A stretch of DNA of 64,000 bases. It comes from an uncultured Acidobacteriota bacterium (GTDB taxonomy: Bacteria > Acidobacteriota > Polarisedimenticolia > J045). A program made the position numbers. Positions 42,001-48,000 of this stretch are shown here, one piece after another. The stretch's first letter is position 1. Each line of letters opens with the position of its first letter. Where the stretch lies: the NCBI GenBank assembly GCA_963702425.1, contig CAVPCQ010000038.1, positions 4,992 through 68,991 of the forward strand, read 5' to 3'.

Positions 42001-45000
42001 GCTGGTCGAGCGGCGCAACATTGATCGAGTCGTGGCAGATCGAGACGAACTTGCGGCCGCGCTGGACCACCAGCCGGCGCCGGTCCAGGACGCCGCGGCT
42101 GTTCTCGCCCAGCCGCTCGTCGAGGAAGCTCGCACGGCCCTTGTAATCGACCATCGTGTTCTCGAGCAGCGTGCTCTTATGGGCCAGCGCGTGGTACATC
42201 GCCTCCTGCAGCTTGATGTCGACATCGGTCTTGACGTAGAAGCCCTGCTCGGTGCCGTAGGACGAGCCGTCGCGCCGCAGCCAGACGATGTCGTCCTGCG
42301 CGACCCAGGTCCCCTCGCCCTGGTCGGGGTCGAGCCCGAGCTGGTGGCAGGACCAGGTCGACTTGCCGGTGGCCGTCAGGCCGAACATGAAAACGCCGAA
42401 GGTCTTGAGCTTGCCGGCCTTCGCGTCGCGCGCGCGGACGACCTTCGTCCCGGCGTGCAGGCCCAGCATCCCGCGCTCGTCGGCGCGGTACATTCCCTGG
42501 CGCAGGAACCCCTTCTTGCACTCGCCGGTGTAGTCCGAGCCCATCGCGATGTTGATGTCGTGCTCGGGGAGCGAAAGGATCTGCATCCGGACCGGGTGCT
42601 CTTCCGGGAGGTCGATCATGATGAACTCCGGCCCGGGCCGGCCCGGCCGGACGTCGTTCATCGTGCAGCCCCACATGTAGGCCAGGCGCGCGTTCTTGGG
42701 GTCGGCGACCGAGACGTAGAGGTTGCAGATCGGGTTGAACTCGGGGTTGTCCCCCATCTGCCGCCGGACGTGGACGAACGGCAGCGTCCGGATCAGCTGC
42801 AGCACCTTGTGCAGTTGGTCGGGCGAGCGCTCGGCCAGCTGGAGCTGGAGCTTGCTGGCCCGCGGCAGCCAGACCCCGGAGCTGCCGAGGAAGAGCGTCC
42901 GTGCCGCCATCCGCGAGGAGATCGCCGAGTACCAGACGTGCGAGCCGTCGGCGGTCCGCCGGGCGAAGGGGAGGGCCATCCGCCGCAGCTGGCGCATCGA
43001 GACGTGCCGGATGTTCGGGCCGTCGAGGCTGCTCCTCAGGTTGTCGGCGAATCGCCTGTAGACATCGGGATCGTACGGGCCGCTTGCCATGCAAGGACCT
43101 CTCGGGACAGCGGGCGGGAATCGGATGTTAGTCGGTCGGGAGCGCCGAGGGCAAGCGAAGCCGGGCCCGGTTGTAGTCCCCCGCCGATTGTCCTATGGTG
43201 GTTCCCCCTACCCAGCACGGACTCGGAGGAGTCCATGCCCCTCACCTGGATCCTGGTCGGCGCGGCCGGCGTCGTCATCGCCACGGCCGCCGCGGCCGCT
43301 TTCTATCGCTACAGGAACTACCGGAAGGCGGGCCCGAACCAGGTGCTCGTCATCTCCGGGCGTCCGTCGACCCTGACGGACGCCGAGGGACGGACCCGAA
43401 CGGTCGGCTACCGGCTCCAGATCGGCGGCGGCACCTTCGTGCGGCCGCTGGCGGAGACGGTGGACGTCCTGCCGCTCGAGGTCTTCTCGATCTCGGTGAA
43501 GGCGCCGGACGTCATCACCTCGCAGGGGGTGCTGATCTCGGCCGACGCCCAGGCGCAGGTCAAGGTCTCCTCCGAGGAGGGGGACCTGCACCGCGCGGTC
43601 GAGAACTTCCTGTCCCGCGGCGCGTCCGGCATCACCTACGTCGCGCAGGAGGTCCTGGAAGGGCACCTGCGCTCGGTGCTGGGCGGGATGACGGTCGAGG
43701 AGATCTACACCGGGCGCGAGGAGGTCGCGGAGCGCCTGCGCCGGCAGGCCGATCCGGACTTCCGGCGGCTGGGGCTGGAGCTGGTCTCGTTCTCGCTCAA
43801 GGACGTGGCCGACGCGCAGGGCTACATCGCCGCGATCGGCGCGCGCCGCCTCGCGGAGATCAAGCGCGACGCGGCGATCGTCCAGGCCGAGACCGAGCGC
43901 GACGCGGCGATCAACGCCGCCGAGGCCCGCAAGGAAGGGGACGTGGCGCGGCTGCGCGCCGAGGCCGAGCTGGCCGAGGCGACGCGCGACTTCGAGATGC
44001 GGCGGGCCGACTACCAGGCCGACGTCAACACGAAGCGGGCGCACGCGGACCTGGCCTACGACCTCGAGCGCGCGAAGGGCGAGCTGGTCCTGCGGCAGGA
44101 GGAGTACCGCGTCCGGCTGACCGAGAAGGAGCTGGCGGCCAAGGTCGAGCAGGCCGAGGTCGTGCGCCGCGAGCAGGAGCTGGAGGCGAACGTCAAGCGG
44201 CCGGCCGAGGCGATGCAGTTCCAGGCCCGGCTGGAGGCGGAGACCGAGGCCTACCGGAAGGAGCTGGAGGCCAAGGGGCGCGCCGCCGGCGTGCGGCTGG
44301 AGGGGGCCTCGCAGGCCGAGGCGATCGCGGCGAAGGGGAAGGCGGAAGCCGACGCGATGCGTCAGAAGGCCGAGTCGTGGAAGCAGTACAACGACGCCGC
44401 GCTGGCCGAGATGATCGTGAAGGTGCTGCCCGAGCTGGCGAAGAACATCGCCGAGCCGCTCTCCAAGGTGGAGAAGATCATCATGGTCGGCGACGACGCC
44501 GGCGTGCCGAAGATCACCGGGCAGGTGGCCCAGGTCGTCGCGCAGCTGCCGACCGTCGTCGAGGCGCTCACCGGCCTCAAGCTCGCGACCTGATCAAAAA
44601 GAAGACGTAGGGGCCGGCCTCTGTGCCGGCCCGAGGAATGCCGGCCTCTGTGCCGGCCCGAGGAATGCCGGCCTCTGTGCCGGCCCGAAACCTCGTGCGG
44701 GCCGGCACAGAGGCCGGCCCCTACCGGCGGCCGAGCGATACGGGGGCCGCCCGCGTGGATGACCGATGCTGACGGAACGCGTCAACCGGATTGCCCTGTC
44801 GCCGACGCTCAAGCTCTCCCAGCGCGCGGCGAAGATGAAGGCCCAGGGGGTCGACGTCGTCGACTTCACGATCGGCGAGCCCGACTTCCCGTCGCCCGAG
44901 GCGGCGAAGCAGGCGGCCAAGGCCGCGCTCGACGCCAACTTCACCAAGTACGTCCACCCCGACGGGATCCTCGAGCTGCGCCAGGCGATCGGCGAGAAGC

Positions 45001-48000
45001 TGCGCCGCGACAACGGGCTGTCCTACGAGACCGACGAGATCATCGTCAGCCCCGGGGCCAAGAACTCGATCTACAACGTCGTCCTGTCGCTGTTCGGGCC
45101 GGGGGACGACGTGCTGATTCCGGCCCCGTTCTGGGTCTCCTACCCGGACCAGGTCGTGCTCTCCGGCGCCAACCCGGTCCTGCTCCGCACCCGCGAGCAG
45201 GAGGGCTTCAAGCTGATGCCCTCCGACCTCGCCGCGGCGGTGACCCCCAACACCAAGGGGATCATCCTCAACTACCCGAGCAACCCGACCGGGGCGGTCT
45301 ACTCCCGGGCCGAGCTGGCCGCGCTGGCGGAGATCTGCGTCAAGGAAGGGATCTGGATCATCAGCGACGAGATCTACGAGAAGCTGATCTACGGCGGCCA
45401 GCGCTTCGTCTCGATCGCCTCGATCGACGAGCGCGTCAAGAAGATCACGATCGTCATCAACGGCTTCTCCAAGGCCTTCTCGATGACCGGCTGGCGGCTG
45501 GGCTACGCCGCCGGGCCGAAGGAAGTGATCGCCGCCTGCTCGAAGATCCAGTCGCACACCACCTCGGGCGCGACCTCCTTCGCCCAGAAGGGGGCGCTCG
45601 AGGCGCTGCGCAGCTCGCAGATGGACGTCGAGCGGATGCGCCAGGAGTTCGAGCGGCGCAAGAACGCGGTGCTCTACCGGCTGCGCGCGATCCCCGGGGT
45701 CTCGGTCGCCTCGCCCGACGGCGCGTTCTACGCCTTCCCGAACGTCTCCCGCTACCTCGACAAGGAGTTCGGCGGCGCCCCGGTGCGCAACACCTACGGG
45801 CTGGCCTACTACCTGCTCAAGGAGGCCCGCGTCGCGGTCGTCCCGGGCGAGGCGTTCGGCAGCCCGGAGCACATCCGGATCTCGTTCGCGACCTCGATGG
45901 ACCGGATCGAGGAGGGGATGAAGCGGCTCGCCGCGGGCCTGGCGCGGCTCGAGTCGCCGCGCCGCCTGCGCCCGCGCCAGCTCAACAACGTGCTGACGAA
46001 GGTCTCGCGCTACGCCGAGGTGCGCGCGGTGCCGTCGATCGACGAGCGCAACACGCTGCTGGCCGAGGCCGAGCGGCACCTGCCGGCGGACTCCTACTTC
46101 GAGTGGAACGCGGCGATCGGCGGCGTGGTGGTCCAGCTGCGCACCAACTCGCCGCACCTGGCCGACTTCTTCCAGGAGAACTTCTACCCCGCGCCGCTCG
46201 AGGGGGACATCGCGCCCCACGCGGTGATCTACGCGGTCAAGGACATGCCGGGCCGCGAGCCGTCGGCGCTCCTGAGCCTGCCGACCGCGACCGCCTTCGC
46301 CTTCAACACCGCCTTCTACGGCCAGGTCCGGACGCTGGCGCTGGTCCTGGCCGCGGACGCCGCGACGCGCATCAGCGGCGCGCTGTTCGTCCACGCCGCG
46401 GCGATCGACCGCGGCGGCCGCGGCGCGCTGCTGTGGGGGATGCCGGGATCGGGCCGTACCGGGCTGCTGGCCGAGCTGCTGCGCGAGGACGGCGTCAAGC
46501 TGGTCGGCAACGACGCGCTGCTGGTCCGGATGTCGGGCGCCGACGCGCTGGTCGACCTGGTCGAGCGCAAGCTCTACCTCAAGGCCAAGTGGGGCCAGCA
46601 CTTCCCCGAGATCGAGAAGCTGCTGGACCGGGCCAAGCTGGAGAACCTGGTCACGACCCACGACCAGTGCACGGTCGAGTACTGCCCGATCGCGCAGGAG
46701 TGCACGCTCGACCGCGGCGCGGCGGCGTGCCTGGCGGCGTCGGGGAGCGGCCGGATCCTGCTCGACCCGGCCTGGCTCGGCGGCGGACGGCAGCACGTGC
46801 GCCGCACCGTCGGGCGGCTCGCGGTGCTGCTGGCCAAGGACCCCGCGCTGCCGTCGGTGCAGGAGCTGTCGCCGCGCGACGCGGCGCGCTACCTGTCGGG
46901 CGGCCAGCTTCCCGGCGCGCGCGGCCCGGCCATCCCGTACCTGAACCCGCACCTGGTCGGTGTCGACGCCGCGCGCAACGACGCGCTGCGCGCGCAGTAC
47001 GAGCGGCTCTTCGCCTGCACGCGGGCGGTCGTCGTCAACAGCGGGGTGGGCTCGCGCGAGGCGATCGCGCGGCGGGTGCTCGAGCTGCTCTGACGGGTTG
47101 ACGGTTGCTGTCCCCGCTACGCCGTCAGTCGACAGGGATCCTGCGGCTGGAAGCCGGCCGCGGGTCCCGGAAGGTCCTCGGCTCCGCGCCGTTGCTGGTC
47201 GCCTTCGCCAGCCGGCGGCGCAGGCGTACGATCGCTTCCTCTTCGATCTGCCGGGCCCGCTCGCGCGAGAGCCCGAGCATCTCGCCCAGCTCCTGGAACG
47301 TCATCGCCGGGCGGCCGTCGAGGCCGAAGCGGTTCAGGATGATGACCCGCTGGCGCTCGGAGAGCAGCGCGACCTCGCGTCGCACCAGCGTCCGCACGCG
47401 CAGCCGGTCGACCTCGAGCTCGGGCGACGCGGAACGCGGGCAGGCCAGCCGGTCGAGCACCGTCAGGCCGCCTTCGCTCGTGGCGTCCTGGTCGAGCGAG
47501 AGCACGCGCGGCTCCCCGCCGCTGCGGTCCACCACGGTCGCCTCGGTCAGCCCGGCCCGCAGCGCCAGCTCCTCGACCGTCGGAGCGCGTCCCAGCTCCG
47601 AGCGCATCGTCTCCTCGATCAGCCGCAGGTCGCGTCGCCGCTCGCGCGCGTAGCGCGTCAGGCGCACGGAGCGCCCCTCGCGGCAGAGGTAATCGAGGAT
47701 CCGCTTTCTGATCCACCACGCGGCGTAGGTCAGGAACTTGACCTCGTGCGACGGGTCGTAACGATGCGCCGCCTCGACGAGGCCCATGTTCCCCTCGGCG
47801 AGCAGGTCCTCGAACGGGATCTCGCGGGACTGGAACTCGCACGCGACCTGGACCACGAAGAACAGGTGCGGTTCGACGAGCTCGCGCACCCGGGCGCGGT
47901 CGATCGGGCCCTCGTGCGGGGTGAGCATCGGCAGCGAGGCAGGGCGCTCCTCGCGTTGCACGCGCCGCGCATCCTCGAGGTAGTGCGACACGAGTCGTCG

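Follow-up and report, generated by a model that had tools for sequence, protein, structure and literature searches.

A gene at positions 44766..47093 (forward strand) of a 64,000-nucleotide stretch of DNA from an uncultured Acidobacteriota bacterium (contig CAVPCQ010000038.1 of assembly GCA_963702425.1; below, the window means this whole stretch) encodes a single protein of 775 amino acids, in which an aminotransferase of the aspartate aminotransferase (AspAT) type is joined to a C-terminal module of ~380 residues. Analysis of this gene, its orthologs, and their genomic neighborhoods confirmed that the fusion is real and in-frame, and that it combines an AspAT-type aminotransferase and a P-loop domain from the HprK/phosphoenolpyruvate carboxykinase (PEPCK) superfamily. 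Judged by its structural model, the whole module is a shortened PEPCK, and the part that resembles HprK_C is the P-loop subdomain common to the superfamily. The identity of the two halves, the fold of the module, the degeneracy of its catalytic site, and its linkage to flotillin and PEPCK genes are established below. As an explanation, we propose, with somewhat less than even confidence, that the pseudo-PEPCK module couples the AspAT to PEPCK, along the route from aspartate through oxaloacetate to phosphoenolpyruvate (PEP), in a flotillin-linked unit, and that it does so by ligand binding and/or docking.

The sequence-only reading of the window had described a complete AspAT-type enzyme that runs without a stop into a region of ~370 residues, and this description holds. 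The ATG start codon directly follows an in-frame stop, one open reading frame (ORF) of 775 codons plus a stop covers both halves, and the first half matches the PF00155 family and carries the motif SKAFSMTGW at residues 235-243, where K236 is the lysine that binds pyridoxal phosphate (PLP); the peptide LLWGMPGSGRTGLLAELLREDGVKLVGNDALLV occupies residues 555-587. Since long ORFs alone are weak proof of coding in DNA of ~72% G+C, we measured codon-position composition. The G+C content of third codon positions (GC3) is 0.97-1.00 in every 60-codon window of the whole fusion ORF, including the junction near 45950, and this unbroken profile indicates one continuous coding frame, in which neither a frameshift nor a missed stop is apparent.

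The alternative that a sequencing or assembly error joined two adjacent genes, with a missed stop near 45960, has a negligible probability and is already effectively refuted. In addition to the GC3 profile, the exact 775-residue protein is present in a public protein collection; its 90%-identity cluster contains nine members of 775/776 residues that come from separate JGI, ENA, and NCBI assemblies; the residues of the linker between the halves are conserved; and intact fusions occur in ~74 other species of several phyla. An interrupted copy, which would favor an artefact, was found in one close genome. In this closest public genome, an Acidobacteriota metagenome-assembled genome (MAG; locus L001), the module is 99% identical to that of the window and the aminotransferase half is interrupted (L001:8888-11146; 753 residues from stop to stop, with a 661-residue gene call). 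Most likely, this interruption is an assembly indel rather than a mark of a pseudogene.

The fusion is widespread. When the C-terminal 380 residues served as the query of a word-indexed search, 26 clusters were retrieved, down to 39% identity, and in all sufficiently long matches among them an aminotransferase tail is followed by a linker with the motif LExPRRLRPRxLNNVxTKV. The sequence-only reading had called for a database search for the same fusion; a scan in which each species was represented by one genome identified relatives in 372 species-level genomes, all of them uncultured MAGs, and the architecture is thus not unique to this assembly. These genomes belong to Acidobacteriota/Thermoanaerobaculia, Zixibacteria, KSB1, Calditrichota, Latescibacterota, Planctomycetota, Gemmatimonadota, Ignavibacteria, TA06, and Eisenbacteria. 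We fetched 80 loci from other species; residue counts given below refer to 81 sequences, of which 51 are acidobacterial and 30 come from other phyla. In all fetched loci that are not cut by a contig end, a stop-to-stop ORF of ~717-992 residues (mostly 777-830) covers both halves. The PLP-lysine motif SK[AS][FY][SA]MTGW is present in 81/81 sequences. Between phyla, conservation differs along the protein: identity is 0.57 in the aminotransferase domain, about as high (0.53) in the N-terminal subdomain of the module, and 0.35, the lowest value, in its P-loop subdomain.

The aminotransferase half (residues 1-395; 44766..45950, forward strand; K236 codon at 45471-45473) was assigned to class-Ib AspATs by its PF00155 match, its PDB matches, and its invariant residues. 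The PF00155 match covers residues 30-388 (E-value 8.5e-75; 252.6 bits vs. a gathering cut-off of 19.7). The best PDB matches are AspATs and aspartate/prephenate aminotransferases (E-values 6e-106 to 1e-88), with 1j32 (E-value 6e-106), 6f35, 5wmh, and 1bkg as the closest solved relatives. In a set of 40 orthologs, no variation was seen at K236, K99, N173, D201, Y204, R244, or R371. In the Thermus-type AspAT, the Lys109-type residue recognizes the distal carboxylate of the substrate, and we take K99 of the fusion protein to be this residue. The best NCBIfam AspAT equivalog models score 398 and 396 bits, below their cut-offs of 550 and 617; for this reason, aspartate and oxaloacetate are regarded as a likely, unproven substrate pair. 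Judged from its homology and its conserved active-site residues, the N-terminal half should interconvert aspartate plus 2-oxoglutarate and oxaloacetate plus glutamate.

The linker (residues 396-418; 45951..46019) has low predicted local distance difference test (pLDDT) values in both structural models, and its residues L406, N408, and T411 are invariant. It is followed, on the same strand, by the N-terminal subdomain of the module (residues 419-540; 46020..46385), the most conserved part of the module, which aligns with E. coli PckA from position ~94 to ~230, has pLDDT of 80-95, and contains the motifs YFEWNA, QLRTNSPH, ENxYP, EPH, and AFYGQxR. The P-loop subdomain (residues 541-625; 46386..46640) is the sole part detected by the HprK and PEPCK sequence profiles. 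It includes a Walker-A-like motif GMPGSGRT (residues 558-565; 46437-46460), with Arg564 in place of the lysine, and the invariant triad E600-R601-K602 (46563-46571). A cysteine cluster, C635-x4-C640-x5-C646-x8-C655 (46668..46730), separates it from the C-terminal part of the module (residues 656-775; 46731..47090), which aligns with PckA positions ~330-472 and lacks the insert that bears R449.

The PEPCK identity of the module rests on structure and on profile comparison. An AlphaFold2 model of residues 396-775 was obtained with pLDDT of 74.9 and a predicted template modelling score (pTM) of 0.77. The sequence-only reading had named structure prediction of residues 400-775 as a check of the resemblance to HprK/P; the top 35 PDB matches of the model in a Foldseek search are all ATP-PEPCKs (E-values 2e-16 to 2e-13; query template modelling scores 0.60-0.69). 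In agreement with this result, hhalign of a 21-sequence family profile with E. coli PckA gave a probability of 94% and an E-value of 1.3e-7 over 337 columns, covering PckA positions 94-472. The family profile compared with PDB sequences matched HprK/P (E-value 4.7e-5) and Trypanosoma cruzi PEPCK (E-value 2.5e-4) at the P-loop. A search of PDB with the single module sequence produced only generic P-loop noise, and the window module has no match to Pfam PEPCK_ATP or NCBIfam pckA at E ≤ 1. The module family seems to have arisen, by shrinkage, from the divergent ATP-PEPCK lineage, a member of which is encoded two genes away in the window.

To describe the state of the catalytic site, we mapped the residues of PckA onto the module by hhalign and compared the 81 orthologs. 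In PckA, K213 and H232 are Mn ligands, and K254 is the Walker lysine. The full catalytic set of PckA, from R65 to R449, is not preserved in the module, and the segments that carry these two arginines are missing altogether. The position of Y207 is occupied by F or Y in both Acidobacteria and other phyla, and that of K212 by an invariant R in both groups. The position of K213 contains S or T in Acidobacteria and mostly S in the other phyla; that of H232 contains H in Acidobacteria and mostly R elsewhere. The Walker lysine K254 is replaced by R in 51/51 Acidobacteria and is retained in 23 of the 30 other sequences. The adjacent position of T255 is T in Acidobacteria and S, T, M, A, K, and more in the other phyla. 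Among the remaining positions, D268 is variable and D269 is D or E in both groups, E282 is invariant in both groups, K288 is kept in Acidobacteria and variable elsewhere, and R333 (R663 in the window protein) is R in Acidobacteria and in 19 of the 30 others, or in 70/81 sequences overall.

The module has also acquired invariants of its own, namely R428, E446-W447-N448, H464, E471-N472, H485, Y518, R588, E600-R601-K602, E626-N627, D667, W670, and R680. The cysteine cluster, an insertion relative to PckA that lies in a region of low pLDDT, follows the pattern C-x(3,4)-[CH]-x(4,5)-C-x8-C over the family. All 81 sequences have C646 and C655, and 78/81 have C635; at the second ligand, 47 sequences have Cys, and the three-cysteine variants have a C-x3-H arrangement in its place. 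From its composition, this Cys3(Cys/His) loop looks like a metal site, either for Zn or for an Fe-S center. The conserved N-terminal subdomain, the family-specific invariants, and the degenerate site together suggest a constrained ligand-binding or interaction domain with decaying phosphotransfer machinery, and not a canonical kinase. By its residue pattern, the module is probably a non-catalytic copy of PEPCK.

The gene directly upstream of the fusion (43235..44593, forward strand) encodes a flotillin of 452 residues with an N-terminal membrane anchor. This protein has both parts expected of a flotillin, the SPFH/Band_7 domain and the flotillin C-terminal region: Band_7 is matched with an E-value of 9.4e-28 (97.9 bits vs. 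a cut-off of 23.6), Flot with 25.6 bits, slightly under the cut-off of 27, and NCBIfam FloT with 319 bits over the full length, under the equivalog cut-off of 700. A flotillin gene is located directly upstream of the fusion and on the same strand in 70/80 loci; since seven of the ten flotillin-less loci have no upstream sequence, this corresponds to 70/73 testable loci. The gap between the two genes has a median of 73.5 bp, is below 220 bp in 65/70 cases, and is often 3-40 bp.

The second neighbor is a divergent, full-length ATP-type PEPCK of 629 residues (41201..43090, reverse strand), divergently transcribed from the flotillin gene. It matches PF01293 (E-value 3.2e-24) and, over the full length, NCBIfam NF006821 (263.6 bits), and its family profile aligns with E. 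coli PckA at a probability of 97.4%. Equivalents of Y207, K212, K213, H232, K254, T255 (as S), D268, D269, K288, and R333 are all found in it, and, with these invariant catalytic residues, it looks like a working enzyme. A PEPCK gene no more than 10 kb from the fusion was found in 42/80 loci, 12 of them among the 30 from outside Acidobacteria, and three arrangements were observed: (i) divergent and upstream, in Acidobacteria, (ii) PEPCK-flotillin-fusion on one strand, in L059, L063, and L067, and (iii) flotillin-fusion-PEPCK on one strand, in L066, L069, L073, and L078. In the reciprocal test, which started from the PEPCK subfamily (18 metagenome loci, ~10 kb on both sides), flotillin was within reach in 10/18 loci, and the module was visible in seven of these ten. 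According to unbiased clustering of ORFs, flotillin and PEPCK are the only two gene families conserved beside the fusion. The linkage to PEPCK is therefore frequent and not obligatory, and that to flotillin is nearly universal.

An exhaustive profile search for the module retrieved 472 representatives at E ≤ 0.001, including stand-alone relatives of ~360-460 residues. The latter have a fuller catalytic signature (YYGQCKS, SIHGA, GTGKST, SDDW, and SE..Y.RT), and their best NCBIfam match is NF006821 (E-values 8e-14 to 3e-8), with the HprK and ScmC models matched only at the P-loop; their gene contexts are heterogeneous and indicate no function. Among 75 representatives scanned, 22 match Hpr_kinase_C, nine match PEPCK_ATP, and seven carry an aminotransferase. 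One metagenomic protein, P0058 (899 residues), is a natural fusion of the module with a PEPCK that has 38% identity (E-value 1e-122) to the neighbor PEPCK of the window. In this copy of the module, the P-loop is completely lost. The fusion argues that the module works physically with NF006821-type PEPCKs and does not need the P-loop for it.

Several further observations concern the same family. P0058 is encoded at L083:6001-8700, and its neighbors are archaeal-looking (a faint TFIIE_alpha match, V4R, and Robl_LC7). The range of the mini-PEPCK family, and of the PEPCK that partners it, may thus extend over both bacteria and archaea. One stand-alone relative, P0121 (754 residues), contains an intein (PF14890, residues 216-393) shortly past the stretch that matches the module as far as its P-loop (residues 68-200). 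Inteins tend to occupy functionally critical sites, and this position is a hint of enzymatic activity in the stand-alone proteins. A lead to ScmC of the SynChlorMet cassette, given by two distant relatives, was rejected as a weak, P-loop-only match (17 bits vs. 125); in the literature, the name ScmC led only to unrelated acronyms.

Based on these data, we propose the following scheme. The aminotransferase half would form oxaloacetate from aspartate. The module, which in this scheme is neither an HPr kinase nor an autonomous PEPCK, would bind an anionic ligand, such as oxaloacetate, PEP, or a nucleotide, and/or dock the true PEPCK. An oxaloacetate-forming aminotransferase would thereby be linked to an oxaloacetate-consuming (or -producing) PEPCK, giving the reversible route between aspartate, oxaloacetate, and PEP, and this coupling would limit the loss of unstable oxaloacetate. 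The near-universal operon with flotillin suggests that the unit is assembled or localized at the membrane. The more specific form of this proposal is a flotillin-scaffolded membrane metabolon for the conversion of aspartate via oxaloacetate to PEP, in which the pseudo-PEPCK binds the shared intermediate or a nucleotide and docks PEPCK, possibly under control of the Cys3(Cys/His) site; we consider this form doubtful. The sequence-only reading had suggested either coupling of transamination to a phosphotransfer or phosphorolysis step or a regulatory module. The former idea fits in that oxaloacetate would be shared, but not in that several catalytic residues of PEPCK are missing and the Walker lysine of the window protein is an arginine; a regulatory or docking role fits better.

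A number of observations weigh against the coupling proposal. The PEPCK gene is missing in ~40% of the loci with long flanks, and the linkage to flotillin is tighter than that to PEPCK, which the metabolon idea alone does not explain. Outside Acidobacteria, the P-loop of most members is still of the canonical form GxxGxGK[ST], and the conserved equivalents of D269, E282, and R333, along with the arginine at K212, are compatible with catalysis. The fusion of the module with PEPCK was found in one lineage only. The full-length AlphaFold2 model, built from a 19-row alignment, has a pTM of 0.51 with the aminotransferase half poorly sampled, and its inter-domain geometry is not confident. The coupling, the docking, and the roles of flotillin are what we infer from the module and its gene contexts.

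Some of the same residues would be expected if the fusion protein were bifunctional, with the module acting as an active minimal PEPCK-like enzyme, or another small-molecule P-loop phosphotransferase, on the product of the aminotransferase (for example, aspartate to oxaloacetate to PEP). The PEPCK fold, the conserved residues at the PckA positions (aromatic at Y207, Arg at K212, acidic at D269 and E282, and mostly Arg at R333), the many invariant polar residues resembling an active site, and the oxaloacetate that both activities would share are in line with such an enzyme, as is the Walker lysine of the non-acidobacterial members. We nevertheless find it unlikely, as the Mn ligand K213 is gone, as is H232 in most phyla, along with the R65 and R449 segments, the Walker lysine is uniformly arginine in Acidobacteria, the Walker threonine position often holds M, A, or K, conservation is lowest in the P-loop subdomain, a complete PEPCK gene lies nearby, and the PEPCK-fused module of P0058 has no P-loop at all. 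The tight linkage to flotillin across phyla could also mean that the main role of the module is to interact with flotillin or to recruit the protein to the membrane; it would then tether a housekeeping AspAT to flotillin assemblies, and the linkage to PEPCK would be secondary. PEPCK folds have already been recruited to membrane complexes (NDUEG2 in complex I, see below), and a PckA-Qox integrative model was among the Foldseek matches. This explanation is quite unlikely in our opinion: it leaves unexplained the conserved P-loop, the anion-binding residues, the metal-type loop, and the module-PEPCK fusion, and stand-alone relatives of the module exist without flotillin.

A further alternative, in which the module would regulate the aminotransferase, PEPCK, or flotillin as a protein serine kinase/phosphorylase of the HprK/P type, develops the HprK-like label of the sequence-only reading, which named the right superfamily and the wrong family: the P-loop segment does match, whereas the module as a whole has the PEPCK fold. 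The P-loop similarity to HprK/P chains seen with the family profile, the NCBIfam HprK_rel_A and HprK_rel_B matches at E-values of ~1e-6, the Hpr_kinase_C matches in the wider family, and the spacing of H and D before the P-loop, which in acidobacterial members is the same as in HprK/P, all speak for this function. Yet all curated thresholds are missed widely: Pfam Hpr_kinase_C matches the module with an E-value of 0.14 (12.1 bits vs. 33.3), hpr-ser scores 14.8 bits vs. 240, and HprK_rel_A and HprK_rel_B score 27.8 and 26.9 bits vs. 200. The similarity spans only ~55-60 residues, and the HprK signature E-x-R-G-x-G is absent from the window module, where this position reads V-E-R-K-L-Y, with E-R-K in its place. 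Given also the Walker motif GMPGSGRT of the window protein, with Arg for the catalytic lysine of the GxSGxGKS motif of HprK/P, the histidine that varies between phyla, and the clustering of ORFs, which revealed no HPr or phosphotransferase system genes conserved nearby, an HprK-type function is very unlikely.

The fusion is of interest in several respects. It joins two enzyme folds with oxaloacetate, a labile metabolite at a branch point, in common, and bears on how amino acids feed gluconeogenesis and anaplerosis in phyla that abound in soil and sediment, such as Acidobacteriota, Zixibacteria, KSB1, Latescibacterota, and others. To our knowledge, the physiological cargo of bacterial flotillins is still poorly defined, and the near-obligate operon offers a concrete candidate client for them; the metabolon, if true, would provide both a conserved metabolic client for bacterial flotillins and a case of natural oxaloacetate channelling. 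The module is also a case study in the evolution of pseudo-enzymes, being a shrunken PEPCK paralog with a K-to-R P-loop fixed across a phylum-level clade. Members of the 90%-identity cluster bear no other names than 'aspartate/methionine/tyrosine aminotransferase' and 'pyridoxal phosphate-dependent aminotransferase', so that public annotation names the aminotransferase half only and leaves a conserved domain family of 380 residues unlabelled; our searches of Pfam and NCBIfam copies found no model for this family.

Other features of the region are as follows. The PEPCK subfamily has a conserved C-terminal tail, ...WEPxxRPxRxxxWRxR (41201-41400 of the window, reverse strand), past the part that aligns with E. 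coli PckA; it may be an interaction peptide. Directly downstream of the PEPCK gene, a cysteine-synthase-like PALP gene (39914-41191, reverse strand) encodes an enzyme with an N-terminal extension of ~80 residues and is next to the fusion in 0/80 loci of other species. Genes for PALP, a sigma-70 factor, an MqnA-like protein, a metallophosphoesterase, and an M14 peptidase are not conserved beside the fusion (0-2 of the 80 loci). The spacer between the flotillin gene and the fusion contains, in this genome only, repeats similar to repetitive extragenic palindromic (REP) elements and a long hairpin (44612..44719), which is formed by three direct copies and one inverted copy of GGCCGGCCTCTGTGCCGGCCCG. 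The whole window has eight copies of this palindromic element vs. 0.01 expected, and further sites are at 22100-22121 and 35688-35793. A scan of the region for promoters and terminators found nothing exceeding chance. A 97-nt tRNA-Val(GAC) reported by ARAGORN (34443-34539, reverse strand) lies inside a beta-lactamase-family ORF with high GC3 (33917-35782, reverse strand) and is probably a false positive.

The fusion protein was compared with known systems. The class-Ib AspATs and aspartate/prephenate aminotransferases (1j32, 6f35, 1bkg, and 5wmh) align with residues 1-395 from end to end, and their PLP lysine, phosphate-binding arginine, carboxylate-binding arginine, and Lys109-type residue are kept; the known enzymes, however, are stand-alone proteins of ~385-410 residues, whereas the fusion bears the 380-residue module. 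With PckA (PDB 1ii2, 1aq2, and 2pc9), the module shares the fold, the equivalents of Y207, D269, E282, and R333, and the ENV and NTG motifs. It differs from PckA in length (~380 vs. ~540 residues), lacking the first ~93 residues with R65 and the R449 insert; in the catalytic positions, with K212 changed to R, K213 to S/T, a variable H232, and, in the acidobacterial clade, R for the Walker K; and in the gain of the Cys3(Cys/His) insertion, the lack of a Pfam PEPCK_ATP match, and the fusion to an aminotransferase. The C-terminal domain of HprK/P is matched at the P-loop subdomain only, and the module has neither the signature loop nor a MurE-like domain at the N-terminus. The cut-offs for the HprK-related kinases A and B (TIGR04352 and TIGR04355) and ScmC (TIGR04249) are missed as well, and no neighbors of the PqqD/radical-SAM peptide-cassette type are conserved.

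P0058 shares with the window a homologous mini-PEPCK module and a PEPCK of the same divergent subfamily, but it has no aminotransferase and no flotillin nearby, its module has lost the P-loop, and it represents a single lineage. NDUEG2, a truncated PEPCK-fold subunit of Euglena complex I (PDB 8j9h), has been judged non-functional (PMC10884005). It is a published precedent for the use of a PEPCK fold that has lost its function as a structural subunit; it is, however, a eukaryotic, mitochondrial, separate polypeptide without an aminotransferase, and its likeness to the module was seen at the fold level only. The sequence-only reading knew of no characterized fusion of an aminotransferase with an HprK-like domain, and the searchable literature likewise yielded none: searches for aminotransferase/PEPCK/HprK fusions, flotillin-aminotransferase operons, and HprK-like kinases returned nothing relevant. 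Both folds are known, and the new features are the architecture combining an AspAT with a mini-PEPCK, the degenerate P-loop with a clade-fixed K-to-R replacement, the insertion resembling a metal site, and the conserved association with flotillin and PEPCK genes.

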